From: an uncultured delta proteobacterium
Lineage (GTDB): Bacteria; Desulfobacterota; Desulfomonilia; UBA1062
Assembly: GCA_963752595.1 (NCBI GenBank)
Contig: CAVVYZ010000014.1
Span: forward strand, 32,001-96,000
Reading direction: 5' to 3'
DNA: 64,000 bases
Shown: piece after piece, positions 2,675-40,222 of the stretch
Position numbering within the stretch: position 1 is the first letter of the stretch
Layout: each line of letters starts with the position of its first letter
Notes under the pieces: generated by a model
The model's database searches: none
What the model saw: only the letters and a program-made list of their open reading frames with translations
What the model was told of the DNA's origin: nothing
Translations under genes and position numbers: made by a program

Positions 2675-4759
2675 ATGAGGCGATATCGGACTGAGAACTT
2701 AAGGGATGTAGTCATTCTATCTCACTCGGGATCGGGTAAGACTTCTTTGGGTGAGGCGCTCCTGTTTAATGCGAAAGCGACTACACGGCTGGGGAAAGTA
2801 CTGGAAGGCAACTCCGTTCTGGATTTCGAACCCGAAGAGCAGAAGCGGCAGTCGTCCATTTTCAGCGCGCTCCATAATTATAAGTGGAAAAACATCGGAG
2901 TGACCATTCTCGACACCCCCGGCGACTCGAACTTTTCCTCGGAGGCTATCCTCGGACTGAAATCATCCGATAATGCACTTGTTGTCATCGATGCCATCGA
3001 TTCGATCAAACCCCACTCAGAAAACTTGTGGAACCTTGTCAAGAAAGAAGGACTCGCGGCTTTCTGTTTCATTAACAAGATGGATCGAGAGCGTGCCGAT
3101 TTCGACCAGGTCCTTAAAGATATCCAGGAGGTATTCGAGATAAAGCCCCTGATCCTGACTTTGCCCATCGGCGCGGAAGAAAACTTCAAAGGCGTGGTCG
3201 ATGTGCTCAGAAACAAGGCGCTTATCTTTGAGAAGGACGGATCGGGCAAGTTCACTGAGACGGATATCCCGGCCGACATGAAGGATACGACCGAAGAGAC
3301 ATACGGCAGGGTAGTGGAAGATCTCGCAGAGGTGGATGACGCCCTGATGGAAAAGTACCTCGAAGGCAGTGACCTGACCTCCGAGGAGCTTGCCAGTGCC
3401 TTGTCCGCAGGACTCGCACGAGGCGTATTCCTCCCGGTCTTTGCCGGTTCGGCCCTGCTGAATATGGGGGTGCAGCCGCTGATGGACTTCATAAACAACT
3501 CCGGTATAACCCCACTGAACAGAACGCTGCCCGAGCTGACGAACAAGCAGGGTGAAAAGCGGGAGCTCGCGGCAAGTGAAGACCAGATATTCTGCGGATA
3601 CGTATTCAAGACCATGAGCGACCCCTACACAGGGACCTTGAGCATCATCCGCTGTTATTCGGGAAAATTGACTCCCGACTCTTCCGTCTTCAACTCATCC
3701 CGCGGCGTAAAGGAAAGAATCGGAACCCTCCTGCTCCTGGAAGGAAAGGCGCAGAAGCCCCTGGAGGATATCGGCCCCGGGGATATCTTCGCCATCGCAA
3801 AACTGAAAGAGACCAAGACAGGGGATACCCTCCTGAGCGAGTCGTTGAACTTCGTGCTGCCCTCGCCCGAGTTCCCGGAAACCATTATGAACATGGCCGT
3901 GAACCCCAAGACGAAGGCGGATGTGGAAAAGATCATGCCCGCCATGCAGAAGCTCATGGATGAAGACCCGGTGCTCACGGTATATCGTGACGAGCAGACA
4001 GGCGAGTTTATCATTTCGGGTTTGGGTCAGCTCCATATCGAGATCGCCGTGGACAGACTGAAACGGAGGTTCGGCGTTGAGGTCGAACTGAAAACCCCCC
4101 GGGTCCCTTACAAAGAGACCATAACCGGCACCTGCAGAGTCCAGGGCAAACACAAAAAACAGACAGGCGGCCACGGACAGTACGGCGACTGCTGGATAAA
4201 GGTGGAACCCCAGGAGAGAGGAAAGGGCTTTGAATTCGTAAACGCCATCGTGGGCGGCGTCATTCCCAAGACATACATCCCTGCCGTGGAAAAGGGAGTG
4301 GTTGAATCCATGCAGCACGGCCCACTGACCGGAAATCCCGTGGTGGACATAAGAGTGACTTTGGATTTCGGCTCCTACCACGACGTGGACTCCTCGGAAA
4401 TGGCGTTCAAGATAGCCGGATCGCTCGCATTCAAGAAGGCCATGGAAGAATGCCGCCCCATCCTGCTGGAGCCCATCATGAACATTACGGTCGTGATCCC
4501 TGAGGAAACCATGGGCGATATCATGGGAGATCTCAACACCAGACGTGCCAAGATAGAAGGCATGAACGCCCGCGGGAAATACCAGGAGCTCAAGGCACAT
4601 GTACCGCTCGCAGAAGTGCTCACCTATGCCCCGAACCTCACCTCGCTGACCTCGGGAAGAGGCACCTATACCATGAGCTTCTCCCACATGGAGCCTGTCC
4701 CGTTCAATATCCAGGAGAAAATCGTTGCAGAGGTGAAAGCAGAGAAAGATGGAAAATAG
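2675..4759 (+). CDS. fusA: Elongation factor G paralog (EF-G2 type)
   Basis: HSGSGKT, DTPG, NKMD, KKQTGGHGQYG, GSYHDVDSSEMAF; SD GGGAG before ATG 2675; not in the str operon. Confidence 0.93.
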   Translation: MRRYRTENLRDVVILSHSGSGKTSLGEALLFNAKATTRLGKVLEGNSVLDFEPEEQKRQSSIFSALHNYKWKNIGVTILDTPGDSNFSSEAILGLKSSDNALVVIDAIDSIKPHSENLWNLVKKEGLAAFCFINKMDRERADFDQVLKDIQEVFEIKPLILTLPIGAEENFKGVVDVLRNKALIFEKDGSGKFTETDIPADMKDTTEETYGRVVEDLAEVDDALMEKYLEGSDLTSEELASALSAGLARGVFLPVFAGSALLNMGVQPLMDFINNSGITPLNRTLPELTNKQGEKRELAASEDQIFCGYVFKTMSDPYTGTLSIIRCYSGKLTPDSSVFNSSRGVKERIGTLLLLEGKAQKPLEDIGPGDIFAIAKLKETKTGDTLLSESLNFVLPSPEFPETIMNMAVNPKTKADVEKIMPAMQKLMDEDPVLTVYRDEQTGEFIISGLGQLHIEIAVDRLKRRFGVEVELKTPRVPYKETITGTCRVQGKHKKQTGGHGQYGDCWIKVEPQERGKGFEFVNAIVGGVIPKTYIPAVEKGVVESMQHGPLTGNPVVDIRVTLDFGSYHDVDSSEMAFKIAGSLAFKKAMEECRPILLEPIMNITVVIPEETMGDIMGDLNTRRAKIEGMNARGKYQELKAHVPLAEVLTYAPNLTSLTSGRGTYTMSFSHMEPVPFNIQEKIVAEVKAEKDGK

Positions 4760-5183
4760 CGGAGCAGATGCAACAAAGAATTTGTTCCAGTCAATACAGG
4801 CCATGAGCGTGTCCGAAAAGCTGGATCTCGCTCACAAGGGCAGCAAGGAAGCCAGGACCATCCTCATGCGGGATCCGAACAAGCTGGTACAGCTTGCGGT
4901 CATCCAGTCGCCGAAGATCACGGAAGGCGAGGTGCTGATGGTCGCAAACAACAGGCAAGTCAACGAAGAAGTGCTCAAGCACATTACGGTCAACCGCGAA
5001 TGGCTGAGGAATTACCAGATCAGGGTCGCCCTTGCCAACAATCCCAAGACCCCGCTGCCGGAGGCAATGAAACAGGTCGCATTTCTCAAACAGCGGGAGC
5101 TTGAGCATCTGGCAAAGTCCAAAGGTGTCCCGAGGGCGCTGGTGATCCTTGCCCAGCAGCGCCTGAAGCAGGTGAAAAAATGA
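4749..5183 (+). CDS. Conserved hypothetical helical-repeat protein
   Basis: Overlaps both neighbours; motifs ARTILMRDPNKLV, SPKITEGEV, ALANNPKTP seen in deltaproteobacterial hypotheticals. Confidence 0.75.
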   Translation: MENSGADATKNLFQSIQAMSVSEKLDLAHKGSKEARTILMRDPNKLVQLAVIQSPKITEGEVLMVANNRQVNEEVLKHITVNREWLRNYQIRVALANNPKTPLPEAMKQVAFLKQRELEHLAKSKGVPRALVILAQQRLKQVKK

Positions 5184-5668
5184 AAAGAGCAGGCGTACTC
5201 ACCTTAAGCGACAAGGGCTCGAAAGGACAAAGGGAAGACAAAAGCGGCGAAATCGTCCAGTCCATACTCGAAGGCTTAAAGATTTCCATCGAGCGCTACG
5301 AGATCATCCCGGACGAGACCGAGCTCATCAGGGGCATGCTCGTTTCCTGGGCAGATGAACTCTGCCTGGATCTTATCGTGACGACGGGAGGCACCGGACT
5401 TTCTCCCAGAGACGTAACCCCTGAAGCCACACTCGCCGTAATCGATAAACGCGTCCCCGGCATGGAAGAAGTCATGCGGAGCGTCAGCCTTCAAAAAACC
5501 CCCCATGCCATGATTTCGAGGGCGGTCGTGGGAGTCAGGAACAGAACACTGGTCATCAACCTCCCCGGCAGCCCTGCAGGCGCACGGGAATGCCTGGAGA
5601 GCGTGGCGCCGGCATTGACGCATGCCCTGTCGAAGCTCGGCGGCGACATGAGTGATTGTGCCTCTTAG
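5180..5668 (+). CDS. mog: Molybdopterin adenylyltransferase (MogA/MoaB family)
   Basis: TLSD, REDKSG, TTGGTGLSPRDVTPEAT, NLPGSP. Confidence 0.92.
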   Translation: MKRAGVLTLSDKGSKGQREDKSGEIVQSILEGLKISIERYEIIPDETELIRGMLVSWADELCLDLIVTTGGTGLSPRDVTPEATLAVIDKRVPGMEEVMRSVSLQKTPHAMISRAVVGVRNRTLVINLPGSPAGARECLESVAPALTHALSKLGGDMSDCAS

Positions 5669-5754
5669 AAAATGACAGATCTTGGGGATTAAAGAAACTA
5701 CCCGCCATTACCGATCCGGCTGTAAGTATTAATTTCTTTTCTTGGAGGATTGCG

Positions 5755-7230
5755 TTGAGGCTGAGAAGAGATCCCCGTTACCTGTCCGATCCCGATGAAT
5801 CGGGCAAAACGGTCCGGTTTCATGACTTTCAGGGCACCGAACGCACCTGTACGGTCAGGGACTTCTCAAGGACGGGGTTGTCTTTCCTTTTGCAGGACGG
5901 AAGCCTTATTTTCCGCATCGGCGACATTATCTCAGAGCTCTCTCTCTTCTCGCACAACCAGAAAGTACACTCCGATACCGCTACGATCATCCATATCCAG
6001 GACGAATACCATGACGGAAAGGTCATATCCCGGATCGGCTGCCGTTTCGAGAATGTCATGGACATCTCCACGATCATCAAGGGAGACAAGGTCACCCGGC
6101 TGAAGAACGAATACTTGGACTTTATCCAGTCCCTGGCAGTGGAAGATAATCTCGATGAAGAGTTCGTTCACCTTACCTCCCATCTCCACTATCTCCTCAC
6201 CAACTTCAGAAACAAGCTCAAGGAAGAGGAGGAAAAAATCAGCAGCGAAGAGGAGAATATCAGGAAGGCGCTTTACGATACGCTACGGTCTTTGACCTTT
6301 AATGTCATCAATGACGTTACCTTGAAATATTGCAATCAATTCACAAATCTCACTGATAAGTTTACAGATTCCAAGCAGCATTTTATCCATCGCGAATATT
6401 TCCAGAAATTGCTCAACGAATTTTTCATGACCTCGGTGTTATTCCGGAGGGCATACACAAAGCCGCTGGGATATGCCGGTGATTACGAGATGATGAATAT
6501 CACGTACCGGAACGATTTCGAAGGTGAGAATCTCTTCTCCCAGGTCATGAACAAGGTAGACTGCGAGGGATCGGCTGCAAAGGCTGTCCGGAACCGGCGC
6601 GAGTATCTGTGCCGGAAGGTCTTGTCCCTGTACGATTCCCTGCCCGAAGGCAGCACCTGCAAAATCGTCAGCGTCGCCTGCGGTCCCTGCGTGGAAATCC
6701 ATGACTTTCTCCTCGCCGTCAGGGAAAAGCAAAAGCCGGTGAAATTGGAACTCCTTGCTATGGATCAGGACACTCATGCCCTCGAGGATGCAAAGCAGCG
6801 ACTCATTCCCCTAGCCGAGACGTTAGCCGATGTCAGTATGAAATTCGCCGAGGACAATATCAAGAATCTTATTCTGGGAAGGAACAAGGAAAAAATCCAT
6901 TATTCCCATGCCGATCTTATCTATACCGCAGGACTGTGCGACTACCTGTCCCCCAATGCAGTCAGCAGGCTCATCCTTGAATTATATCGCCACCTGAAGC
7001 CGGGCGGGACACTTATTATCGGAAATTTCGGGATATACAACCCGCAGAGATTCAAGATGGAGTACGGGTCGGAATGGTTCCTGATCCACAGGAGCGAAGA
7101 AGATCTCAAGAGCCTTGCCGCCGGCCTGCCTGAGGACGTGATGATCCGCGTCGAGAAAGAACCCGAAGGCGTCAATCTGTTCCTCAATGTCACCAAACCG
7201 GCCTCTGAAATCATGACTCTCACAGAGTAA
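5755..7230 (+). CDS. PilZ domain + class I SAM methyltransferase, PhcB-like
   Basis: SD GGAGG then TTG 5755; RRDPR and DFSRTG (PilZ RxxxR / DxSxxG); RAYTKPLGYAGDYEMM, VACGP, AGLCDYL, LKPGG.LIIGNF, EWFLIHRS. Confidence 0.8.
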   Translation: MRLRRDPRYLSDPDESGKTVRFHDFQGTERTCTVRDFSRTGLSFLLQDGSLIFRIGDIISELSLFSHNQKVHSDTATIIHIQDEYHDGKVISRIGCRFENVMDISTIIKGDKVTRLKNEYLDFIQSLAVEDNLDEEFVHLTSHLHYLLTNFRNKLKEEEEKISSEEENIRKALYDTLRSLTFNVINDVTLKYCNQFTNLTDKFTDSKQHFIHREYFQKLLNEFFMTSVLFRRAYTKPLGYAGDYEMMNITYRNDFEGENLFSQVMNKVDCEGSAAKAVRNRREYLCRKVLSLYDSLPEGSTCKIVSVACGPCVEIHDFLLAVREKQKPVKLELLAMDQDTHALEDAKQRLIPLAETLADVSMKFAEDNIKNLILGRNKEKIHYSHADLIYTAGLCDYLSPNAVSRLILELYRHLKPGGTLIIGNFGIYNPQRFKMEYGSEWFLIHRSEEDLKSLAAGLPEDVMIRVEKEPEGVNLFLNVTKPASEIMTLTE

Positions 7231-7294
7231 CCTGAAAAGGCCCGGGGGGGGGTTAGCCCTCGAACCATGAGTGGTGCAAGAATACGGTTTCATG

Positions 7295-7334
7295 AAACAA
7301 AATGGTGCCGGTCCGTCACCGGCCCGGCACCATT
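7295..7334 (-). terminator. Terminator hairpin downstream of pal paralog
   Basis: AATGGTGCCGG/CCGGCACCATT stem, T-rich tail on minus strand. Confidence 0.6.
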
Positions 7335-7417
7335 CAAGCTGTGAAAAAAAGCTTTAACGGTTAAATTCTGATCATCCTATGCAAACATCAGAAGCTGAAC
7401 AATCCTGCTGGCTGTTG

Positions 7418-7969
7418 CTACTTGTTGGCAATGATGAACTGGTCATTTCTATTTTTGGCCCAGGCCTTTTCATCATGACCCGGATCTACGGGCCTTTCCT
7501 CACCATAACTGACCGTGGTGATACGCCCTTTGGAAATGCCCAGGGATATGAGATACTCCTGCGATGACCTTGCCCTCCGCTCTCCAAGGGCCAAGTTATA
7601 CTCGGTTGTACCCCTCTCATCGCAGTTCCCCTGGATCCTTAAGGCCATGTCGGGATGATCCTTCAGGAAAGCAGCCTTGCTTTTAAGAATATCTTCTGCC
7701 TGGGGACTGAGCGTGAACCTGTCATAATCAAAATATACGTACGTATTCTCGAAGTCCGCGATCTTGTCTTCCAGACCTGCCGTATCGGCACGTGCGGGCG
7801 TCTCGCCCACCTCTCCGCCCTGCTGTGTGCCTGAAGGCTGCGCCATCATCATTTCCTGCTGGGTGGAAGACTGAATCTCCTCCGCAGGCTTCTTCTGCGC
7901 ACAGCCGCCGATGAAAAGCGCCACCCCGATTATGCAAAAGACGGTCATGCCCATGCCTTTTTTCTTCAT
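7418..7969 (-). CDS. pal: Peptidoglycan-associated lipoprotein (stand-alone paralog)
   Basis: Lipobox FIGGC; [38 protein letters not shown]; SD GGAGGT. Confidence 0.93.
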   Translation of the reverse strand: MKKKGMGMTVFCIIGVALFIGGCAQKKPAEEIQSSTQQEMMMAQPSGTQQGGEVGETPARADTAGLEDKIADFENTYVYFDYDRFTLSPQAEDILKSKAAFLKDHPDMALRIQGNCDERGTTEYNLALGERRARSSQEYLISLGISKGRITTVSYGEERPVDPGHDEKAWAKNRNDQFIIANK

Positions 7970-9723: not shown

Positions 9724-10717
9724 CTAGTGTGCCAGCTTCATGACGGACCGGACCTTTTCCATGGTGATTTCCGATTCGCCGGCGGCCTTGAGGTCACCTT
9801 CCCTCAAGACCTCGTCGATCAGCGCCATGTTCCCCCGGTAATATTCGATCTTTTCCCAGATGGGCTCGAACTCCCGTATGAGATTCGCCATCAGGATCTG
9901 CTTGCACTCGACGCATCCGAGGCCGGCGCTCCTGCACCCTGTCCGGATCTCCGCCCTCTTCTCCTCATCCGTGAAGTATTCGTGCAGGGGATAGAGATTG
10001 CAGTCATCGGGTTCTCCCGGATCTTTTTTCCGCATGCGCTTCGCATCGGTGAGCATCTGCATGACTTTTTCCTTGATGCTCTCCCTGGTTTCATAGATGA
10101 AAATGGCGTTGTTGTACGACTTGGACATCTTCCTGCCGTCGATGCCCAGGACCCTGGCCGCCTCGGTGAGGATCTCCTTGGGCTCCTTGAGAATGCCGCC
10201 TCCCATAAATGAAGTTGAACCTCCTCACGATCTCCCGGGTGAGTTCCAGGTGGGGGAGCTGGTCTTCGCCGATGGGCACCCTGTCCGCATGGTACAAGAC
10301 AATGTCCGCGGCCTGGAGCACCGGGTATCCCAGGAACCCGAATGTGCTCAAATCCTTTTCCTTGAGCTCCTCTTTCAATTCTTTATAGGTTGGGTTCCTC
10401 TCCAGCCAGGACAACGGCGTGATCATGGACAGGAGCACGAAGAGCTCTGCATGGCTCTTGATATCCGACTGTCTGAAGATCACGGACTGTTTCGGGTCGA
10501 TGCCTACGCTCAGCCATATGGCGACCATATTCCGGGCACTGTCCCGGATAATGGACGGGTCCCGGTATTCGCTGGTCAGGGCGTGCCAGTCTGCGATGAA
10601 ATAGAAGCACTGGTATTCCTTCTGGAGCTCCACCCAGTTTTTCAGCACACCCAAATAGTGGCCGATGTGAAGATCTCCCGTTGGCCTGATGCCGGATACG
10701 ATGCGTTTCCTCTCCAT
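9724..10717 (-). CDS. trpS: Tryptophanyl-tRNA synthetase, split by +1 indel near 10203 (likely sequencing error)
   Basis: SGIRPTGDLHIGHY, YPVLQAADI, GEDQLPHLE in one frame; KMSKS in the next; extra G in a GGG run. Confidence 0.92.
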
Positions 10718-21466: not shown

Positions 21467-22792
21467 ATGTCCATCGCGATCCTCGACCCTGACAAATCTA
21501 CAGTGACCATACTCGCGGAACTTATCGAAGACATGGGGGAAACGCCCTGCCCTTTCACGGACAAGGACAAGTTCCTCGGCGCCATCAACCCCAAATCCCA
21601 TTCCATCGCGATTATCTCAGATGATTTCCTGGATGTCGTCGAGGGCACCAAGCAGGTGTACCAGGACATCGAGGTCGTAGCCACCGGCACACAGTTCTGT
21701 GATCTCGCGCTCCAGGCAGGTGCTTCCCATTACCTGAAGAAGCCTTTCCTGGCAGAGGAGTTCCGCCAGGTCATCAATGTCATCCTCCATGCCAAGAAGA
21801 ACAAGGGTTCATCAGAAACCGGATCGTTCATCGCACATGACAAAGGCATGAGAAAGATCATCGAGATGCTCGATAAGGTAGCCCCGACCCAGGCGCCGAT
21901 TCTCATCCAGGGTGAGTCCGGAACCGGCAAGGAAGTCATCGCGCGATACATCCACAAGCTCAGCAAGCGCGCTACAGGCCCCTATGTGGGAATAAACCTG
22001 GCGGCCATACCCGATACCTTGCTGGAGAGCGAACTGTTCGGATACGAGAAGGGAGCCTTTACCGGCGCCTATGCCACGAGGGTCGGGAAGTTCGAGCTCG
22101 CCCATGACGGGACCATCCTCCTCGATGAGGTCACTGAGATCAGCATAGGGCTCCAGGCCAAGCTCCTCAGGGTCCTCCAGGAAAAACAGATCGACCGCGT
22201 CGGGTCCAAGGCCCCCATCGCCGTGGACTTCCGGGTGATCGCCACGACCAACCGTGATATCGAGATCGATGTAAAAGAAGGCAGGTTCCGCAGAGACCTC
22301 TATTTCCGGCTGAATGTGATCCCCATCAAGGTCCCGCCGCTTCGGTCCAGGAAGGATGACATCCTCCCCCTTGCTGCGCACTTCATCACAAAGATCGCCA
22401 GACGCGAAGGCATGGGAGAGAAGTTTTTGACACCCCAGGCAAAAGATGCCCTCTTGGGCTACTCGTGGCCCGGCAATGTGCGGGAGCTCGAGAATGTGAT
22501 CGAGCGCTCCATGATCCTGACCGATGGACCCGAGATGTCCCCGGAGACGATCACGCTCGGCATGGAAGGCAGTGAAGAGGCCCCCGGACAGGCTGTCGGC
22601 GTGGGCACGACCATCCATGATATGGAGAAGAATCTCATCATGTCCACCCTGCAGAGCATGGACGGCAACCGGACAAAGGCGGCAACGCTTCTCGGCATCA
22701 GCATCCGGACCCTGCGCAACAAGCTCAACGAGTACTCGGGAAATGGTCAATTTTCCGACGCCGATCCGGTCAATTCCGTGGACATCGAGTAG
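21467..22792 (+). CDS. sigma54-dependent activator (FlrC/FleR-like) with atypical receiver domain
   Basis: [51 protein letters not shown]; directly upstream of flgB. Confidence 0.9.
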   Translation: MSIAILDPDKSTVTILAELIEDMGETPCPFTDKDKFLGAINPKSHSIAIISDDFLDVVEGTKQVYQDIEVVATGTQFCDLALQAGASHYLKKPFLAEEFRQVINVILHAKKNKGSSETGSFIAHDKGMRKIIEMLDKVAPTQAPILIQGESGTGKEVIARYIHKLSKRATGPYVGINLAAIPDTLLESELFGYEKGAFTGAYATRVGKFELAHDGTILLDEVTEISIGLQAKLLRVLQEKQIDRVGSKAPIAVDFRVIATTNRDIEIDVKEGRFRRDLYFRLNVIPIKVPPLRSRKDDILPLAAHFITKIARREGMGEKFLTPQAKDALLGYSWPGNVRELENVIERSMILTDGPEMSPETITLGMEGSEEAPGQAVGVGTTIHDMEKNLIMSTLQSMDGNRTKAATLLGISIRTLRNKLNEYSGNGQFSDADPVNSVDIE

Positions 22793-22825
22793 GCTCCAGC
22801 GGCATAAAAAGACCTTTTTCCCCCT

Positions 22826-22841
22826 TGGTACGAGTATTGCT
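22826..22841 (+). promoter_or_regulatory. sigma54 promoter of flgB operon
   Basis: TGGTAC-GAGTA-TTGCT. Confidence 0.8.
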
Positions 22842-22867
22842 TATTTTATACAAGAGAGGAGGGAATT

Positions 22868-23257
22868 ATGCCAGGAATCTTTGGAAAAGAATTTTCGGAA
22901 CTCACCTCGGTCATGAATTTCCGCCTGTTCCGCCAGGGGGTCATTTCCAGCAATATCGCAAATATTGACACCCCGGGATACAAGGCAAAAGAAACATCCT
23001 TTGATGAAGAACTGCAAACCCGCCTGCAGATGAGCACCACCACCCCGGAGCACATCCCTTCTCCCGACACGGCCGGAGCGATCTCCTTCCGTGTCGCGGA
23101 GGACCCGTACTCCCGCATCGGAAACGACTCCAATACGGTGGACATCGACCGCGAGATGATGAAGATCAGCCAGAATCAGCTGCTTTATGATGCATCGGCC
23201 CAGGCGGTCCAGACAAAAATTACGGCGATCAAAGAAGCCATACGAGGGATACGATAA
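22868..23257 (+). CDS. flgB: Flagellar basal-body rod protein FlgB
   Basis: SSNIANIDTPGYKA, NTVDIDREM. Confidence 0.95.
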   Translation: MPGIFGKEFSELTSVMNFRLFRQGVISSNIANIDTPGYKAKETSFDEELQTRLQMSTTTPEHIPSPDTAGAISFRVAEDPYSRIGNDSNTVDIDREMMKISQNQLLYDASAQAVQTKITAIKEAIRGIR

Positions 23258-23661
23258 TGGACCTATTCACCGCAATGGATATCAGTGCCAGCGGCATGAG
23301 GGCGCAGAGGACCCGGCTGAATGTCATCTCCTCCAATATCGCCAATGCCCACACGACGAGGACGGACAAAGGCGGCCCCTATCAGCGCAGGGACGTGATT
23401 TTCCGGGAGAACTCTTTCGAGGATCAGCTCAGCTCCGTGGAGGTCGAGTCCATCACCAGCGACCCCACGCCCGGAAAGCGCACATACGAACCGAGCAATC
23501 CCGATGCGGACGGGGAAGGATATGTGACCCTGCCCAATGTAAATCTCATGGAAGAAATGGTCAATATGATCGGAGCGACACAAGCCTTTGAGGCGAACAC
23601 CACTGCCGTCAAGGCCGAGAAGGACATGGCCCTGAAGGCAATCAGCATAGGGAGGCTGTAA
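23257..23661 (+). CDS. flgC: Flagellar basal-body rod protein FlgC
   Basis: ISASGMRAQRTRLNVISSNIANA, GPYQRR, GYVTLPNVN. Confidence 0.95.
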   Translation: MDLFTAMDISASGMRAQRTRLNVISSNIANAHTTRTDKGGPYQRRDVIFRENSFEDQLSSVEVESITSDPTPGKRTYEPSNPDADGEGYVTLPNVNLMEEMVNMIGATQAFEANTTAVKAEKDMALKAISIGRL

Positions 23662-23951
23662 TGCGTATAGAACTGTCGGATTTTCCACGCTTGAGCATCG
23701 ACCAAGGTGAACGGAGTCAAAGCAAATCGCCCAAGGAAAGCTTTGTCGATACCTTGAAGCAGGCGGTCGAAATCACGAACAAGCAGGCCAAGGAGGCTGA
23801 CCGCTCTGCACTGGAGCTTGCCAAGGGCGAGAACGGGAACATCCACGAGACAATGATCGCCATGCAGAAAGCGGATGTCAACCTCCGACTCCTGATCGCG
23901 GTGACCAACAAGCTCATTGAAGGCTATAACCAGCTTACACAACTGAGATAA
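23661..23951 (+). CDS. fliE: Flagellar hook-basal body protein FliE
   Basis: IHETMIAMQKA, NKLIEGYNQL; synteny. Confidence 0.92.
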   Translation: MRIELSDFPRLSIDQGERSQSKSPKESFVDTLKQAVEITNKQAKEADRSALELAKGENGNIHETMIAMQKADVNLRLLIAVTNKLIEGYNQLTQLR

Positions 23952-23953
23952 GT

Positions 23954-25570
23954 ATGAAAGACATTTTCTCAAACATAGCGGCATGGTTTTCCCGAACGAG
24001 CACCGTCCAGAAGCTCACCGTTTTTGGGATGCTCGGTCTGGCAATAGCCGTCATCGTCGTATCCCTCATGTGGGCTTTCGAACCCAAGTACCAGTATCTG
24101 TTCACCAATCTAGCCGAGTCGGATGCTTCGATGATAGTCCAGCACCTCAAGGAAAATCGTATCCCCTATAAACTGACCAAAGCGGGAACAGCTGTCATGA
24201 TCCCGGAGAAAAGCGTGTATGAGACAAGGCTGGACCTGGCTTCCAAAGGCCTGCCCAAGGGCGGTACCGGAGAAGGGTTTGCATTGTTCGACCAGACGGG
24301 ATTCTCCACATCCGAGTTTGTCCAGAAGATCAATTTCCAGCGTGCCCTCCAGAACGAACTCGCCAATACCATCATGTCCCTGGAGGAAGTGGACTACGCC
24401 AGGGTCCATATCGCGCTCCCCAAGGAGAGCGTCTTTATCGAAGACGAAAAGCCCGCGAAGGCCTCCATTGTCGTGAAACCGAAGCAGGGGCTGACCATAC
24501 CTCAGGGCCAGGTCCAGGGCATCGTGTATCTGGTGGCGAAGAGCGTACGGGGCCTCGACCCCGAGAACATCAGCATCGTGGATATCCGGGGCAAGGTGCT
24601 CTATGAGGGCAAGAAGGATTCGGCATCCATATCCCTTGCCAACAATTACCTCGATGTCAAGCATACCACCGAGAACGCGCTACAGGGCCGTGCCCAGGAC
24701 CTCCTGGAAAAGATCCTGGGGCCGGCGGCCGCGGTGGTAAAAGTGAGCGCGGACATCGACATGGACATGGTCAAGAGCGTCGAGGACAACTATGATCCCG
24801 AGGTCCATGTAGTCAGGAGCGAGGAGTTGAAAAATGCGTACAACGGCAGCGATACCATAAATGGCGGGATTGCCGGGACCCAGTCAAACCTGCCCACCGG
24901 CAGGGGAGGACCGGGATCCATCCCTGACAACGCCTCGGAAGGCCGGTCCAATGTCGTCCGGAACTATGAGATCGCACGGAACCAGACCGAGCGGGTCAAA
25001 TCACCGGGAAAAATCACCCGGCTGACCGTATCCGTGGTGGTTGACGGCACCTATAAGACCGATGCTAAGGGCAACAAAACCTTTTCCGCAAGGAATGCAG
25101 ATGAGCTCAAACGCATCGAAGATGCGGTGAAACAGACCGTGGGCTTCAGCGCCGACCGCGAGGATACGTTCTCCATATCCTGTATGCCCTTTACACAGGA
25201 AGGTCCGGAATTAGCGGCCCTGGCGGAGAAGGCGAAGAAAAATGAGCTCCTGGCCTCGCTTATCAAGCCTGCCGTCTTCCTCGTAACCACGCTGCTTGTC
25301 CTGCTGTTCGTTGTACGGCCTCTCATGCGGTGGCTGTCAAAGTCATTCAAGATCATCGAAAGGGGCGCTGATAAGAGAAGGGCCCTGCCGACGGCAGATG
25401 ACCTGCCCGAAATAACGGGAGAAGAGGTGCCTCAGCTGGAAGCCATCACGAAAGGAGAAGAAATAAAGCATGCCGTTCAGGGCAAGCGCAAGGTGATCGA
25501 AAAGGGCAGCAAGGATGATATGAACACTGCCACCGCGGTTGTGAAATCCTGGTTGCAGGAGAACGTCTGA
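23954..25570 (+). CDS. fliF: Flagellar M-ring protein FliF
   Basis: Two TM segments; ARVHIALPKESVF, ASIV, NYEI. Confidence 0.95.
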   Translation: MKDIFSNIAAWFSRTSTVQKLTVFGMLGLAIAVIVVSLMWAFEPKYQYLFTNLAESDASMIVQHLKENRIPYKLTKAGTAVMIPEKSVYETRLDLASKGLPKGGTGEGFALFDQTGFSTSEFVQKINFQRALQNELANTIMSLEEVDYARVHIALPKESVFIEDEKPAKASIVVKPKQGLTIPQGQVQGIVYLVAKSVRGLDPENISIVDIRGKVLYEGKKDSASISLANNYLDVKHTTENALQGRAQDLLEKILGPAAAVVKVSADIDMDMVKSVEDNYDPEVHVVRSEELKNAYNGSDTINGGIAGTQSNLPTGRGGPGSIPDNASEGRSNVVRNYEIARNQTERVKSPGKITRLTVSVVVDGTYKTDAKGNKTFSARNADELKRIEDAVKQTVGFSADREDTFSISCMPFTQEGPELAALAEKAKKNELLASLIKPAVFLVTTLLVLLFVVRPLMRWLSKSFKIIERGADKRRALPTADDLPEITGEEVPQLEAITKGEEIKHAVQGKRKVIEKGSKDDMNTATAVVKSWLQENV

Positions 25571-26586
25571 TGATAAAACTGAAAAAGATCGACGGTCCCC
25601 AGAAGGCAGCCATCTTCCTCATGGCCATGGGTGACGAATTCACCCGCAATGTGTTCAAAGGTTTGACGGATTATGAGATCAAACTGCTGGGGAAGCGCCT
25701 TGCAAACCTTGAAGATGCAACCATCCCGGTGGATGTGGTGCAGAATGTCATGGACGAGTTCTCAATGTTGAGTTCCCAGGTGAGCGGCGTCACCGGAAAG
25801 GGCATGGGCTACCTCAAGGATGCCCTTGTCTCGGCCCTGGGTGCGGATAAGGCAAAACCGATCCTGGAATCCATTTCTATGGCGACCGACACCACGGCAT
25901 TCTCATCGCTCAAAGGGGTAGACCCCCTGATCCTCGTGGACTACCTCAAAGGAGAGCACCCGCAGACCGTGGCCCTGGTGCTTGCCCATCTCGACTATGC
26001 AAAAGCCGCCCAGATCATCAAGGAACTGCCCGAGAAACTCCAGCCCGAAATCATCTTCCGGATGGCAAATCTAGGCATGGTGCCGGCAGGCGTTATCGAA
26101 GACCTCGACCAGGTTCTGCGCAAGGAGATCGAGGCCATGGGCTCCACCGAGAGCAAGAAGCTTGGGGGCGTCGAAACCGTTGCCGAGATCATGAACCAGA
26201 TGGACCATAATACCGAAAACAATATATTTTCGTTCCTAGAAGAAATGGATGCAGACCTTGCCGAAGGCATCCGCCAGAAGATGTTCGTGTTCGAAGATAT
26301 CGTCGGCATCGACAGCCGCGGCATCCAGACCATCCTCAAGGAAATCACGAATGAAGAGCTTGCCCTTGCCTTGAAGACAGCCAGCGAAAACCTGAAGAGC
26401 CTCATCCTGAAGAACATGTCCTCGCGAGCTTCCGAGATGCTCCTGGACGATATGGAAGCCATGGGGCCCGTGAAGCTTTCCGATGTAGAGAATGCGCAGC
26501 AGTCCATCGTCCGTGTGGCGAGAAAGCTTGAGGCAGGCGGCAAGATCGTCATCGGCGGAAAGGGTGGTGAGGATGTCCTCGTCTAG
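25570..26586 (+). CDS. fliG: Flagellar motor switch protein FliG
   Basis: KAAIFL, EHPQTVALVL, MFVFEDI, NMSSRA, MGPVKLSDVE. Confidence 0.96.
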   Translation: MIKLKKIDGPQKAAIFLMAMGDEFTRNVFKGLTDYEIKLLGKRLANLEDATIPVDVVQNVMDEFSMLSSQVSGVTGKGMGYLKDALVSALGADKAKPILESISMATDTTAFSSLKGVDPLILVDYLKGEHPQTVALVLAHLDYAKAAQIIKELPEKLQPEIIFRMANLGMVPAGVIEDLDQVLRKEIEAMGSTESKKLGGVETVAEIMNQMDHNTENNIFSFLEEMDADLAEGIRQKMFVFEDIVGIDSRGIQTILKEITNEELALALKTASENLKSLILKNMSSRASEMLLDDMEAMGPVKLSDVENAQQSIVRVARKLEAGGKIVIGGKGGEDVLV

Positions 26587-27226
26587 GATACTCAAGGGAG
26601 ACAAGAAGCACTCCTCCGTGACCCCCTATACCATCCAGGAGATGGAGTCCAAAACAAAGCCCGGCAAGCGGGAAGAAGCATCGAAGGATGCCGAGACCAT
26701 CATCAGAAATGCGCGGGAGATAAAAGAATCCATCGAGATGGAAGCCTACAAAGAAGGGATCCTGAAAGGTCAGGAAGAGGGCCGGAAGATGGCGATCAAG
26801 CAGATCGAGCCTCTTTTCGATACCCTGAAAAATGCCTTGGAAGAATTGTCCGATCTACGGTCCGCCATGATTGAAAAACACCAGGAGCAGATCCTTGAAA
26901 TAGTTTTCCTCATTGCAGAAAAGGCCATACACCGCCAGATTCATCTATCTCCCGACATCATCCTGGATACGGTCCGCGCAGCGAGCAGTCATCTCACCGA
27001 AACCGAAGAGATACGCATCCGCCTCCACCCTTCGGATTTCGAATACATCAGGGAAATAGAGGCGATCATCTCCAAGAAACTCACAGGGAGAAATACCATC
27101 CACGTCATTGAGGACAGCTCCATAGATCGCGGCGGATCCGTCATCGAGACCGAATTCGGTGACATCGATGCAACCGTTCGCTCCCAGATTGAACATATGA
27201 AGGAAGTGGTTATCGATCATGACTAG
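26573..27226 (+). CDS. fliH: Flagellar assembly protein FliH
   Basis: AxxxGxxxGxxxG repeat, IRLHPSD, GGSVIETEFGDIDA. Confidence 0.9.
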   Translation: MSSSRILKGDKKHSSVTPYTIQEMESKTKPGKREEASKDAETIIRNAREIKESIEMEAYKEGILKGQEEGRKMAIKQIEPLFDTLKNALEELSDLRSAMIEKHQEQILEIVFLIAEKAIHRQIHLSPDIILDTVRAASSHLTETEEIRIRLHPSDFEYIREIEAIISKKLTGRNTIHVIEDSSIDRGGSVIETEFGDIDATVRSQIEHMKEVVIDHD

Positions 27227-28538
27227 TCTCGCAAAATATGCGGCCATCCTCAAAGAGACCGATCCCATCCAGGTGCGGGGAAAGGTCACGAACATCGTGG
27301 GCCTGGTGGTCGAAGGCCACGGCCCAGGAAGTTCCATGGGCGGCATGTGCGAGATATACTCGAAGCAGATGAACACCTCCATCATGGCAGAGGTCGTGGG
27401 ATTCAGGGACAAGCGGGTTCTCCTCATGCCGCTCGGAGATTTAAGCGGCATCGGTCCGGGCAGCACCATCATAGCGAGAAAGTCGCATCCGTCCGTCAAG
27501 GTCGGCAGGGAACTCCTCGGCAGGGTAATAGACGGTATGGGCAACCCCCTTGACAGCCATGGAACGCTTATCCTCGGAGAAGAAATACCGCTGTATGGAA
27601 AGCCCATGAATCCTTTGAAAAAGAAGCGCATTACCGAGCCGCTGGACCTGGGGATTGCGGCAGTAAACGGCATCCTGACCATCGGCAAGGGACAGCGCAT
27701 GGCCATCATGGCAGGCTCCGGCGTGGGCAAGAGCGTCCTCATGGGCATGATGGCGCGCCACACCAAGGCGGATGTGAACGTGATCGCGCTCATCGGCGAA
27801 CGCGGCAGGGAGGTGAAGGAATTCATCGAAAGGGACCTGGGGGAAGAAGGGCTGAAGCGCTCCGTGGTCGTTGCGGCCATATCCGACCAGCCTGCCCTTA
27901 TCCGCGTCCGGGGAGCCTATCTTGCCACCGCCATCGCTGAATACTTCAGGGACAAAGGGCTCGACGTGCTCCTCATGATGGATTCCGTGACCCGGTTTGC
28001 CATGTCCATGAGGGAGATCGGCCTGGCAGTCGGCGAGCCTCCCACTACCAAAGGGTACACCCCTTCATGCTTCGCGAGACTGCCCAAACTCCTCGAGCGG
28101 GCCGGGAATACCGCTTCCCAGGGGAGCATTACGGGGCTCTATACCGTCCTCGTGGAAGGCGATGACATGAACGAACCCGTTGCGGACAGTGTCCGCTCGA
28201 TCGTTGACGGGCATATCGTGCTCTCCAGAGATCTTGCGGCAAGAAACCATTATCCTGCCGTCGATATCCTCAGGAGCGTAAGCAGGGTGATGAACGATAT
28301 CGTGACCAAGGATCATATGAAGATGGCCCGTAAGGTTCTGGAATACAAGGCGGTCTATGAAGAGGCGCGCGATCTCATCAATATCGGCGCCTATGTTTCG
28401 GGAAACAACCCCCAGATAGATACCGCCATCAAGCACATCGACGCCATCAATGCCTTCCTGAAGCAGGATATCGATGCAATGGTAAGCATTGAGGGGGTTT
28501 TGGGCATGATGAAAAAGATCCTGTCCGGGGCAGACTAG
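27219..28538 (+). CDS. fliI: Flagellum-specific export ATPase FliI
   Basis: AGSGVGKS, IGERGREV, MDSVTRFA, GEPPTTKGYTPS. Confidence 0.96.
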   Translation: MTSLAKYAAILKETDPIQVRGKVTNIVGLVVEGHGPGSSMGGMCEIYSKQMNTSIMAEVVGFRDKRVLLMPLGDLSGIGPGSTIIARKSHPSVKVGRELLGRVIDGMGNPLDSHGTLILGEEIPLYGKPMNPLKKKRITEPLDLGIAAVNGILTIGKGQRMAIMAGSGVGKSVLMGMMARHTKADVNVIALIGERGREVKEFIERDLGEEGLKRSVVVAAISDQPALIRVRGAYLATAIAEYFRDKGLDVLLMMDSVTRFAMSMREIGLAVGEPPTTKGYTPSCFARLPKLLERAGNTASQGSITGLYTVLVEGDDMNEPVADSVRSIVDGHIVLSRDLAARNHYPAVDILRSVSRVMNDIVTKDHMKMARKVLEYKAVYEEARDLINIGAYVSGNNPQIDTAIKHIDAINAFLKQDIDAMVSIEGVLGMMKKILSGAD

Positions 28539-28547
28539 AGGATCATT

Positions 28548-28988
28548 ATGGGATTCCGTTTCCGTTTTGAGACGCTCTCCAGAGTCAGAAAGATTCGAGA
28601 AGACTTGGCGCTGCAGGAGTTCTCCAAGGCTCAAAAGGTGCTCATCGACCTGGAAAACCTGAAAGCCGCAATTCTTTCCAGGAGGGCTTATGTATGGCAG
28701 AATCTCACAGAGAAGATGGACTCCGGAATTACGGCGCAGGAGATTATTTCCTACAATAATTACATCTTTTATCTGGAAGCCGGTATCACCGAGGCGGAAA
28801 AGCAGATCGCCCAGGCACTGAAAATAATCGAGACAAAGCGTCAGGAACTGCTCAAGGCGAAAAAGGAAGCAAAAGCCATCGAGCGCCTCAAGGAAATAGA
28901 CCTGGAACGATATACGGCGGAACAGGCGAGGCAGGAGATGAACTTCATTAATGAGATCGCAGTCCAGCGGCATGGGAGAATACAATGA
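28548..28988 (+). CDS. fliJ: Flagellar export protein FliJ
   Basis: FRFRFETL, coiled coil, follows fliI. Confidence 0.88.
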   Translation: MGFRFRFETLSRVRKIREDLALQEFSKAQKVLIDLENLKAAILSRRAYVWQNLTEKMDSGITAQEIISYNNYIFYLEAGITEAEKQIAQALKIIETKRQELLKAKKEAKAIERLKEIDLERYTAEQARQEMNFINEIAVQRHGRIQ

Positions 28989-29614
28989 CCGGAAAAAAAA
29001 TCCTTTTTATCGCGATAATAGTGAATCTCTTTTTCCTTGGAATATATTTTTCCATCGATCCCCTTTCCGCGGCGGAAGAAAAGCAATCTCAGAGCGCTGC
29101 CAAGAAAGAATCCGCCCAGGATACCAGGGCTGCATGGGACTCTCTCAGGCAGCGGGAAGAACTTTTGAGGATCAGGCAGCAGGAATTGAATGAGCTGGAG
29201 AAGCGGATCGATGAGAAGATCAGGCGTCTCTCGGTGCTCGAAGCATCCATCAAGGTCGAACTCAGCTCGTACAAGCAAGTGAGCGATGAGCGAGTCAAGC
29301 ACCTCGTCAAGATCTATTCCTCCATGAAGCCGAACGCGGCAGCTAATCTCATGAACCAGATAGACCTCGAAGTGGCCACAGAGGTTTTCCTCAACATGAA
29401 GGGCGAGATAGCAGGCGGAATCCTCTCCTACATGGATACCCAGAAGGCCGCAGCCATCACCAAGAGGCTCATGAGCAACCGCAGGAGACAAGCTTCCGGA
29501 CCTTCTGCTCCCGAACCGGTACCTGCCCCGGCACCGGCACCCACCTGCAGCGGCAACCCAGCCCCAGCAGCAGTAATATTCCGGTATCCTCGTATCCAGC
29601 GAGAAGTTGGATAA
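28985..29614 (+). CDS. MotE/FlbB-like (MgtE_N domain) flagellar protein
   Basis: N-terminal TM, coiled coil, LVKIYSSMKPNAAA, ILSYMDTQKAAAIT; Pro/Ala tail may be frameshifted. Confidence 0.8.
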   Translation: MTGKKILFIAIIVNLFFLGIYFSIDPLSAAEEKQSQSAAKKESAQDTRAAWDSLRQREELLRIRQQELNELEKRIDEKIRRLSVLEASIKVELSSYKQVSDERVKHLVKIYSSMKPNAAANLMNQIDLEVATEVFLNMKGEIAGGILSYMDTQKAAAITKRLMSNRRRQASGPSAPEPVPAPAPAPTCSGNPAPAAVIFRYPRIQREVG

Positions 29615-29780: not shown

Positions 29781-31529
29781 TTATGACGATGTGGTTACTT
29801 GCTGTTGCTGTGCTGTAGCGAGGTCTCTGAACATTTCCTCTCGGATGCTGCGGAAATCCGCCTCATGAGCTATGAATGCATCCACCACCTCGGGATCGAA
29901 ATGACTGCCCCGGTCTTCCACGATGATCTCCAGGGCCTTTTCGTGCGAGAATGCCTCTTTGTAGACCCGCTTGGAGGTAAGGGCATCATACACATCCGCA
30001 AGGGCTACGATCCTGGCGGATAAGGGGATCTGGTCACCCTTGAGCCCCTTGGGATACCCGGTGCCGTCCCATTTCTCGTGGTGGTAATAGGCGATCTCCT
30101 TTCCCAGACTCAGGAAGGACTGGCCTTCGAGCTTCGTTTCGACCGCCCTGAGTGCATCTCCTCCCAGGGACGAGTGACGTTTGACCACCTCGAACTCATC
30201 CGTGGTCAGACGGCTCGGCTTCAGCAGGATGGAGTCCGGAATCCCCACCTTCCCGATATCGTGGAGGATGGACGAATTATAGATATCATCGATATAATCC
30301 TGGGTGATATACGCTGCAAACTTCGGTTTCTCGGACAACTCCTGCGCCAGGACTCTTGAGTATTCACGTATGCGCTCAAGATGGGCGCCCGTGTCTGCAT
30401 CCCGGTATTCTGCGAGTTTCGCGAGACCCAGAATCGTTGCATTCCTGGCGCTCTGGACCTTCTTATATGACTCGAGCAGATCACTCTCCAGCTTCTTGCG
30501 CACAGTGATATCCCTGATCACCATTTGGAAGCCGACGAGATCTGTTTCCTTGTAGATGCACTTGGCATTGCACTCAACTTCAAAGACCCTTCCCAGACGG
30601 TTTACGATCCTGAACTGGAAATCCTTTACCGTCTGTTCTGTCGGCAGACGATCGAACATCCGCTCCACAAGGCTGGTATCCGACCCCTTCACGAGGTTCA
30701 TGAAGCTGAAATCAAGCTTCTGGCCGGAAGGAATGCCGATCGTATCATAAAACCGGGGGTTGGCCATGAGGATCTTCGAATGCCTGTCCACGAGGATGAC
30801 GATATCGATGATATTCTCGTAGAGCTCCCGGTAACGGAGCTCGGATTCCTTGAGCTCGATGACGCGTTTTTCCACCTCGGCCTCTAGGTTGTGAGCGTAG
30901 TAGGAAAGGCGCTCTGCAAGTGCATCCATCTCTGTTTTGAGCTTACATTCCCGTCTCCTTACTTTTGTCTCTTCAAACGCCTGCAGGGTCGTTATTACGA
31001 TGAAAAAGACAAAGAAGAAACTATTGCTGAAGAATATTTTCAGGCTGTTCGGATCGGGAGCGTTGAGCATGATTATGGGCAAGGCATAGATAAGGTAAAG
31101 CATAAACCCGAAGAGAAGAGCCTGCGGAGCATTTATGGGTAAGATGACGATAGTGACGAGGACCATGATGAGTCCGACGTAATAAAACGACGAATAGCCG
31201 CCCATTTTTACGCACATCATGGAGATGGTGAAGGCCGCAATGATATATGCAACGGTCACCAGTGCAAATGCATTGTTTTTGCCGTACCTTGTATAATAAC
31301 CGAGCAGCAAAGCCAGGAGCGCTCCGGAACAGGCAATGCGGTAGAAAAAAAAGAGGGTAAAATACTCCCGGACTACCACATAATCCAGGACACTGAAGAA
31401 CGGGATGAGGATGATTCCCACCAGGAGGATCGCCAGTACGCGCTGGTACAATAGATCCCTGGTCTCTTCGCCGTATCTGCGTTCGTATTCTTCTAAAATC
31501 AACAGCATACCATCTATCACTATCGACAA
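29781..31529 (-). CDS. Membrane sensor-PAS-HD-GYP c-di-GMP phosphodiesterase
   Basis: 5-6 TM N-terminus; PAS (YRELYEN...VIRDIT); HDIGK, HHEKWDGTGYP, DVYDAL; exact start uncertain. Confidence 0.9.
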   Translation of the reverse strand: MSIVIDGMLLILEEYERRYGEETRDLLYQRVLAILLVGIILIPFFSVLDYVVVREYFTLFFFYRIACSGALLALLLGYYTRYGKNNAFALVTVAYIIAAFTISMMCVKMGGYSSFYYVGLIMVLVTIVILPINAPQALLFGFMLYLIYALPIIMLNAPDPNSLKIFFSNSFFFVFFIVITTLQAFEETKVRRRECKLKTEMDALAERLSYYAHNLEAEVEKRVIELKESELRYRELYENIIDIVILVDRHSKILMANPRFYDTIGIPSGQKLDFSFMNLVKGSDTSLVERMFDRLPTEQTVKDFQFRIVNRLGRVFEVECNAKCIYKETDLVGFQMVIRDITVRKKLESDLLESYKKVQSARNATILGLAKLAEYRDADTGAHLERIREYSRVLAQELSEKPKFAAYITQDYIDDIYNSSILHDIGKVGIPDSILLKPSRLTTDEFEVVKRHSSLGGDALRAVETKLEGQSFLSLGKEIAYYHHEKWDGTGYPKGLKGDQIPLSARIVALADVYDALTSKRVYKEAFSHEKALEIIVEDRGSHFDPEVVDAFIAHEADFRSIREEMFRDLATAQQQQVTTSS

Positions 31530-38168: not shown

Positions 38169-38996
38169 TCAGGCCTGCCTCTTCCTCAAGACCTCGCGCT
38201 GCCGCCTGAAGAGATAGCGGATGATGTCTTCCCTTGTTTCGGCATCCACCTGGAGAAACCTGGCTGCGACGGCATAGCGCTGAGTTTCGTAAGAAGTGAC
38301 GGGTTTCAGGCGGATGACCTCACCCACGAGCCTCATGAAGAGCAGCGGCGCCATGGGCAGGATGAGATTGATCTCCAGGAGGTCGCCCGCCCGGAACGAT
38401 TCCCTGGTAATGAACCTGATGCCCGAGGCACTGATATTCACATCCCTGGGCGAGGTTTTCATTAATGTCATGAAATCCTCTGCCAGGTACATGTGGATGA
38501 GCAGGTCGACCTTCCGGTTCAGCTCCCAGAGTGACTGATTGAACGACGGCTCCCGTGAATAGGGCGCCTCATTGGATCCGGTATGGCCGTACTTTCCCTT
38601 CAGAAAAGAATCGATGATGAGTTTATTGCCCCTGATCCTTTCCATGGTTTCCGGCAACACCTCGGATTTCTTGTCGGAATGACAGAGAAACCCGGCTTGG
38701 AAGTAGATCCTGTCATAGATACGGACATCCTGCCTGCGCTCGTTGCCGGGAGATGCATAGCACTCGATGCTCATCCTGATGCCGCCTTCGGTGATCTCCA
38801 TGACCCTGGCAAGCACGGAATCCTGGCCGTCAGAGAGCCTCACCAGCGTTCCTTCCGAGGCATCCAGGCCTGATCTCGGCGAGAAGACGAACAGGTCTTC
38901 ATCGATGATTTCGACCACATCCCCCGGTACTTTACTTCCTCCTGATACCTGGGCATGGATGCCCAATTTCAAATTGAGCAGGAGATCGATGTTCAT
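38169..38996 (-). CDS. PilZ-domain protein
   Basis: ERRQDVR and NISASG motifs; REDIIRYLFRRQRE tail; ATGA overlap with upstream DGC. Confidence 0.85.
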   Translation of the reverse strand: MNIDLLLNLKLGIHAQVSGGSKVPGDVVEIIDEDLFVFSPRSGLDASEGTLVRLSDGQDSVLARVMEITEGGIRMSIECYASPGNERRQDVRIYDRIYFQAGFLCHSDKKSEVLPETMERIRGNKLIIDSFLKGKYGHTGSNEAPYSREPSFNQSLWELNRKVDLLIHMYLAEDFMTLMKTSPRDVNISASGIRFITRESFRAGDLLEINLILPMAPLLFMRLVGEVIRLKPVTSYETQRYAVAARFLQVDAETREDIIRYLFRRQREVLRKRQA

Positions 38997-39973: not shown

Positions 39974-40026
39974 AAGTCTCCTCCTCTTATAAAAATCCTC
40001 TTCCCTAGAGACATGCAATATAATTA

Positions 40027-40042
40027 TGCAAAGTATGTGCCT
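40027..40042 (-). promoter_or_regulatory. sigma54 promoter of DGC-PilZ operon
   Basis: Minus strand AGGCAC-ATACT-TTGCA. Confidence 0.65.
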
Positions 40043-40222
40043 TGGCCGGGACGGGAAACCCATGCGTGCTGCTCTTCATTTATTGCATTCAAGATAATGT
40101 TTTTGGCTGTCTTTTGGTTCCGTTGATTAAATACCCTAATTAGTGTATAGTCTTGCCCGGCTTGATTCGAATGCAGCAGGAGTCTCTCCTGCATGCTGCC
40201 GATAATCACGGATAGGTGGGCT

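Follow-up and report, generated by a model that had tools for sequence, protein, structure and literature searches.

Published work on signalling of the PhcB type concerns Ralstonia and Cupriavidus, in which it governs virulence and switches of lifestyle. The product of the methyltransferase PhcB is methyl 3-hydroxymyristate or methyl 3-hydroxypalmitate (PMC9197120, PMC7694676 and PMC7154725). Here we describe a relative of PhcB encoded in a 64,000-nucleotide (nt) stretch of DNA from an uncultured member of the Desulfomonilia (assembly GCA_963752595.1, contig CAVVYZ010000014.1, positions 32,001 to 96,000 of the forward strand), which we refer to as the window and number from its first letter. 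The gene (P0001, 5755–7230, plus strand) encodes a methyltransferase of 491 amino acids (aa) with an N-terminal PilZ domain, and a second gene (P0125, 29781–31529, minus strand) encodes its predicted receptor. The phcBSRQ genes are the closest known system to this module, which differs from them in its intact PilZ input, its lack of a kinase cascade, its HD-GYP output and its unlinked genes. Our preferred reading, which we hold to be somewhat better than evenly balanced, is that the methyltransferase is a Phc-type signal synthase gated by cyclic di-guanosine monophosphate (c-di-GMP), with a receptor that would degrade c-di-GMP.

From its sequence, the membership of the window protein in the PhcB methyltransferase family can be regarded as established. 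As the reference PhcB we used P0123, a Paraburkholderia graminis methyltransferase found by tblastn of plasmids, whose gene is followed by those of a histidine kinase and two response regulators in a phcBSRQ-like operon. P0123 and the window protein align colinearly by BLASTP (residues 19–476 against 10–457, 25% identity, E-value 1e-42). Reference genomes contain 329 relatives of P0123; the best 80 show 64–93% identity to it, and most of these belong to Paraburkholderia, Cupriavidus, Ralstonia and Telluria. In R. pickettii, the PhcB-type gene heads a string that encodes a sensor kinase (PhcS), a receiver fused to HisKA and HATPase (the unusual layout of PhcR) and a further receiver (PhcQ), and this string matches the phcBSRQ gene order as given in PMC7154725 and PMC9102662. 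An alignment of 37 family members contains 32 invariant columns, and of the 28 family-invariant columns in the core, 24 are identical in both of the PhcB orthologues compared. The signature core residues of the family (KPLGYAGDY.M, NR, GxGP..E, the acidic D337, DY and W..R) are all found in the window protein. Many close homologues carry a PhcB function label from the Joint Genome Institute (JGI), and the family is large, with 750 matches at E ≤ 1e-3 among 7,997 scored candidates; no family for the 491-aa protein was found in NCBIfam. The PhcB-like character proposed in an initial annotation of this DNA is thus borne out by the full-length alignment, the operon checked in R. pickettii and the core columns, and every string quoted there occurs in the open reading frame (ORF) at 5755–7230: RRDPR and DFSRTG near the N-terminus, RAYTKPLGYAGDYEMM at residues 232–247, AVRNRR at 277–282, AGLCDYL at 392–398 and EWFLIHRS at 440–447.

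The protein consists of three parts, as the initial annotation had also proposed. The PilZ domain (residues 1–103; 5755–6063, plus strand) is a six-stranded beta-barrel, with strands between residues 18 and 98, supported by Pfam PF07238, AlphaFold2 and Foldseek. Next come a helical linker or bundle (residues 104–235; 6064–6459, plus strand), modelled by AlphaFold2 as helices 104–132, 135–163, 167–200, 206–224 and 228–235, and then the methyltransferase core (residues 236–491; 6460–7227, plus strand), which contains KPLGYAGDYEMM, NR (280–281), the S-adenosylmethionine (SAM) motif SVACGPCVE, D337, D396-Y397 and W441..R446. The model of the whole protein, built on 37 family members, has a mean predicted local distance difference test score (pLDDT) of 89.7 and a predicted template modelling score (pTM) of 0.72. 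In this model the long helix 104–132 leads straight out of the barrel, and residues 300–480 form a Rossmann-type methyltransferase. PhcB shares the layout of N-terminal barrel, helical linker and methyltransferase with the window protein, and KPLGYAGDYEMM, NR, GCGP..E, D, DY and W..R are common to both. The two differ in that PhcB lacks both PilZ motifs, reading NLQRKSL where the window protein reads DFSRTGL and having no N-terminal arginines, and in that the host here is an uncultured member of the Desulfomonilia, not a betaproteobacterium.

The PilZ domain is intact as judged by its Pfam match, its two motifs and its fold. PF07238 scores 26.3 bits against a cut-off of 22.5 (residues 26–103) and was also detected in the genome scan. 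Both textbook motifs can be read in the translation, RRDPR (R4–R8; 5764–5778, plus strand) for RxxxR and DFSRTG (D36–G41; 5860–5877, plus strand) for [D/N]xSxxG, at the normal spacing of 27 residues. The N-terminal 135 residues folded alone give strands at 18–98 and a helix at 104–130 (pLDDT 87). The best Foldseek matches of the PilZ model in the PDB are MrkH, the YcgR PilZ domain with c-di-GMP (template modelling scores 0.62/0.63), VCA0042, PlzA, Alg44 and BcsA, and the top 11 PDB matches listed for the N-terminal model are all PilZ proteins, most of them solved with c-di-GMP. The domain model and these fold matches therefore indicate that the N-terminus folds as PilZ, a fold on which the initial annotation had made its own reading depend. 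The surrounding genome encodes c-di-GMP machinery, with 12 GGDEF and 13 PilZ matches in Pfam (including the PilZ domain of the methyltransferase gene itself).

Three features of this domain weigh against gating by c-di-GMP. Beyond the closest orthologues, position 4 is occupied by K, N, S, E, A or T instead of arginine; it is R2, R5 and R8 that orthologues have in common, so that the family-wide spacing is RxxR, one residue short of the textbook RxxxR; and the Pfam match begins only at residue 26, with the N-terminal motif outside the alignment. Together with the relatives that have swapped the N-terminal domain for a cyclic nucleotide monophosphate (cNMP)-binding domain or are without motifs, these features would fit a barrel that keeps the PilZ fold and no longer reads c-di-GMP, having, as in true PhcB, a role in structure or in partner binding, or else recognising a different ligand. 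We consider this improbable. The window protein itself has both the RxxR and the RxxxR spacing, the more distant PilZ-bearing clades read hRxxR[YFILV] at the N-terminus, and all 33 of the diverse PilZ-bearing relatives compared share S38 and G41. In addition, retention and loss of the two motifs go hand in hand, which is what one would expect of motifs acting on the same ligand, and according to a PilZ survey (bioRxiv 10.1101/814665) c-di-GMP binding was retained by PilZ domains in fusion proteins.

The joint fate of the two motifs is apparent from 80 metagenome loci with relatives of the gene, 68 of which have a readable N-terminus (the other 12, cut short or without an anchor motif, were dropped). 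Forty-two of the 68 keep [DN]xSxxG together with an arginine-rich N-terminus, and the remaining 26 have neither. A maximum-likelihood tree was built from the cores of 73 sequences. All 30 rows without the motifs, four PhcB orthologues from Burkholderiales among them, fall on one side of a single branch (support 100/98), and with midpoint rooting they nest inside the PilZ-bearing forms. This topology suggests that PhcB descends from a PilZ-bearing ancestor. A separate clade of PilZ-methyltransferases carries the motif NYSVFG (L142, L145, L146, L147, L151 and L164, with five of the six loci from one metagenome), and in this clade no adjacent sensor domain was found even where 7 kb of flank is present.

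The class I methyltransferase region has as its best Pfam match the SAM-binding domain of CheR, barely above the cut-off (30.7 bits against 27), and a sequence search of the PDB returned only a weak match to a CheR (E-value 0.004). Since the PilZ protein MapZ of Pseudomonas aeruginosa acts on the methyltransferase CheR1 by binding it (according to bioRxiv 10.1101/814665), and since 5y4r is among the fold matches, one might read the protein as a CheR-like protein glutamate methyltransferase with a fused PilZ domain, that is, a version of MapZ-CheR1 in cis. We regard this as very improbable and have rejected it. The CheR N-terminal domain was not found by Pfam, and the three real CheR genes of the genome score 194–228 bits compared with 28 bits for the window gene. 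The best PDB match of the whole model is an uncharacterised Bordetella protein (3ocj, E-value 2e-12), followed by small-molecule O- and C-methyltransferases, with no CheR among the 39 matches listed, and in full-length homology as in signature motifs the protein agrees with PhcB. In MapZ-CheR1, as well as in BcsA and Alg44, PilZ controls an enzyme in response to c-di-GMP, as is proposed for the window protein. MapZ differs in working in trans on a protein methyltransferase, whereas PilZ is here fused to a small-molecule methyltransferase of the PhcB type, and BcsA and Alg44 differ in being parts of polysaccharide machines. The reading of the initial annotation, a putative c-di-GMP-regulated small-molecule or lipid methyltransferase, remains the best.

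The initial annotation stated that no phcSR genes are adjacent to the methyltransferase gene. This is correct for phcS and phcR, and phcQ does not adjoin the gene either; the neighbours encode an EF-G paralogue, a 144-aa protein, MogA, Pal, ScpB and ScpA. A sensor domain of the PhcS type is nevertheless present 22.5 kb away, fused to HD-GYP. A search of the genome that used the membrane sensor domain from R. pickettii PhcS as query gave P0125 as its single clear match (E-value 3.7e-8), the next match having an E-value of 0.6. The predicted receptor P0125 is a 582-aa protein in which a PhcS-like multi-pass membrane sensor domain (residues 1–230; 30840–31529, minus strand; identified by BLASTP, alignment and phmmer) is followed by a PAS domain (residues 232–341; 30507–30836, minus strand; Pfam PF00989, E-value 5e-11) and an HD-GYP domain (residues 371–548; 29886–30419, minus strand; Pfam PF13487 (HD_5), 117.6 bits against 27.2). 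It aligns with R. pickettii PhcS by BLASTP over 200 colinear residues (25% identity, E-value 4e-10), and in phmmer its sensor domain matches the sensors adjoining methyltransferase genes, with E-values down to 1.6e-18. The invariant D of LDY, an R and the YY.G positions are common to P0125, PhcS and 22 other members. In Pfam no family was found for the P0125 membrane domain, and Paraburkholderia PhcS gives a sub-threshold MASE8 match only.

P0125 thus resembles PhcS in its colinear multi-pass membrane sensor domain, with the LDY, R and S.YY.G positions in common, and differs from it in output. PhcS ends in HisKA and HATPase, while P0125 ends in PAS and HD-GYP, the latter with HDIGK and HHEKWDGTGYP in its translation and hence a predicted c-di-GMP phosphodiesterase. 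A further difference is that the P0125 gene does not lie beside the synthase gene. A flagellar cluster (21467–29614, plus strand) encoding a sigma-54 activator, FliF, FliG, FliH, FliI, FliJ and one more protein ends convergent to the P0125 gene. Roughly 7 kb from the sensor gene, a gene for a 275-aa protein with a C-terminal PilZ domain (38169–38996, minus strand) overlaps that of a 356-aa GGDEF diguanylate cyclase (38993–40063, minus strand) by 4 bases, and this pair (38169–40063) looks like a c-di-GMP maker together with its own reader.

Outside the window, the association between the methyltransferase and a sensor of this type is strong. Among the metagenome loci with at least 400 nt downstream (37 PilZ-intact and 19 motif-less), a PhcS-like sensor ORF directly adjoins the methyltransferase in 38 of 56, namely 20 of the 37 PilZ-intact and 18 of the 19 motif-less loci, and lies downstream on the same strand in all cases but one. 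In a Pfam scan of 36 such sensor ORFs, histidine-kinase domains were found in 31, many of which are fusions of about 900 aa that resemble PhcS joined to PhcR, and a class III cyclase domain in the other five. These five adenylate/guanylate cyclases fused to a sensor beside the methyltransferase occur in L134, L135, L143, L144 and L157; the PilZ motifs are intact in the four with a readable N-terminus, and the L143 gene is cut short.

The same association was seen in an even sample of 301 genomes from the window's phylum, at a profile threshold of E ≤ 1e-10. The methyltransferase was found in 29 genomes, and the sensor in 24 of these and not in the other five, in which the methyltransferase matches are short core-only frames or contig-edge fragments. 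Among the 272 genomes where the methyltransferase was not found, the sensor was found in 21 and not in 251. By their coordinates, sensor and methyltransferase are adjacent or fused in 20 of the 24 genomes with both, and the four unlinked exceptions all come from the window's own family. Two loci show arrangements close to the proposed module. In G255 (L190:1043-9667, minus strand), the gene of a PhcB-family methyltransferase with an N-terminal cNMP-binding domain is followed directly by that of a sensor-PAS-HD-GYP protein of the P0125 type and then by that of a PilZ-PAS-sigma-54 activator. In G215 (L192:1125-3683, minus strand), a single 852-aa protein consists of sensor, PAS, GGDEF and a C-terminal methyltransferase (profile E-value 1.7e-42). 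G255 has another sensor-PAS-HD-GYP gene some 3.6 kb farther along, and the G215 protein unites a receptor, a c-di-GMP synthase and a signal synthase in a single polypeptide.

Within the window's own family we compared 24 relatives, which are kin genomes, so that the counts overstate independence. The methyltransferase was found in 19 of them. The sensor occurs in 15 of these 19 (weakly in G024) and in none of the five that lack the methyltransferase. The methyltransferase gene is cleanly missing between mogA and scpB in G009, G020 and G021, and G021 lacks the sensor gene just as cleanly, with the radical-SAM and flagellar genes that flank it elsewhere in place. G006 and G009 are uninformative with respect to the sensor because the flanking genes are missing too, which leaves only G019–G021 as informative among the five. 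The sensor domain was not detected in four relatives that carry the methyltransferase, G013 (78% complete), G015, G016 and G017 (96–99% complete); in G015 the syntenic sensor slot is cut by a contig end.

The kinship of these genomes, the small informative set and the four relatives without a detected sensor all weigh against the proposed pairing, as do several other observations. In the window, the two genes are separated by housekeeping and flagellar genes and are read from opposite strands, and they are unlinked in the window's own family as a whole. Sensor-domain matches without the methyltransferase in 21 genomes of the phylum sample indicate that the domain is not exclusive to the pairing, and 17 of the 37 PilZ-intact metagenome loci with downstream room have no adjacent sensor. 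At 25% identity to PhcB, the substrate may differ. The relatives that keep the enzyme alone, the lack of linkage, the loci without an adjacent sensor, the neighbouring envelope gene pal and the many specificities of the O- and C-methyltransferases that are its structural neighbours would all suit a c-di-GMP-gated enzyme that modifies a small molecule or lipid inside the cell or in its envelope to meet the cell's own needs and not to signal, with the HD-GYP protein unrelated to it. We find this unlikely, though less so than a PilZ domain that has ceased to read c-di-GMP. The family-wide association with the sensor domain is strong, the sensor occurs within the window's family only in genomes that have the enzyme, and the enzyme has its catalytic core in common with a known signal synthase. 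Nor do the flanks provide a functional context, since the methyltransferase gene is cleanly absent between mogA and scpB in three relatives. For the same reason we rejected a functional tie to the string of EF-G paralogue, 144-aa protein and mogA, which had been considered in view of its gene order, kept in 12 of 12 loci.

Returning to the preferred reading of a c-di-GMP-gated signal synthase paired with P0125, the analysis shows homology, fold, motifs, gene-neighbour statistics and co-occurrence; ligand binding, the direction of control, the identity of the product, its export and the receptor pairing are inferred, along the following lines. c-di-GMP would bind the PilZ domain, and the long helix after the barrel would switch the methyltransferase on or off. 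The product would be a PhcB-like methyl ester that leaves the cell and is sensed by P0125, the one PhcS-like sensor of the genome, with its HD-GYP phosphodiesterase output. Perception of the signal would then change the level of c-di-GMP and so feed back on the synthase, with possible further effects on the flagellar genes next to the sensor gene and on the other PilZ-domain proteins of the genome.

Such a circuit would resemble signalling by diffusible signal factor (DSF) and its Burkholderia counterpart (BDSF), in which the signal is also derived from a fatty acid and its perception lowers c-di-GMP. In the RpfC-RpfG pair, RpfG carries HD-GYP. RpfR degrades c-di-GMP upon sensing BDSF (PMC7154725). 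The DSF and BDSF systems differ in that their synthase and sensor families are unrelated to those described here; in addition, the sensor would here be joined to HD-GYP in one protein, and c-di-GMP would be read by the synthase itself. A literature search, with subscription journals outside its scope, found no paper tying PhcB to PilZ or PhcS to HD-GYP.

The methyltransferase gene is present in single copy in a genome of 4.1 Mb in 31 contigs (84% complete). Among the sequencing runs listed, no RNA run contains this genome, and those of DNA contain it at a small share only. It begins with TTG, 5 bases ahead of which the ribosome-binding site GGAGGA (5745–5750, plus strand) can be read off the sequence. 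Orthologues start at the same residue (M/L/V-R-L-R-R-D..., here MRLRRDPRY...), and because of this we consider the TTG start at 5755 to be sound. A scan of 5100–7500 for promoters and terminators gave nothing above the level of shuffled sequences. Upstream, the gene for the 144-aa protein (4749–5183, plus strand), which is without a Pfam family, lies between those of the EF-G paralogue and mogA, with stop codons that overlap the start codons of the genes that follow, and this gene order is kept in all 16 of the 16 related loci examined. Downstream, the gene for tryptophanyl-tRNA synthetase (9724–10717, minus strand) is seemingly split into an N-terminal part (10091–10717) and a C-terminal part (9724–10206) in overlapping frames, which could reflect a frameshift or an assembly error in the draft genome.

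The gene and its relatives suggest that the synthase family is widespread, that an input for a nucleotide second messenger, lost in PhcB, is present in most of its members, and that the matching sensor domain can have kinases, cyclases or c-di-GMP enzymes as its output. We tentatively propose, at a little under even confidence, that phc-type signalling is not a speciality of the Burkholderiaceae and that it would instead be a motif-less offshoot of a synthase-sensor module that occurs in many uncultured lineages and has a synthase gated by c-di-GMP (or cNMP), and which in the present organism would form a closed loop where PilZ sets synthesis and the HD-GYP receptor resets c-di-GMP. The window offers a directly testable case, with one enzyme, one ligand, one product and one receptor. 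If the proposal is true, quorum sensing and c-di-GMP, two major decision systems of bacteria, would be linked at the signal synthase itself.

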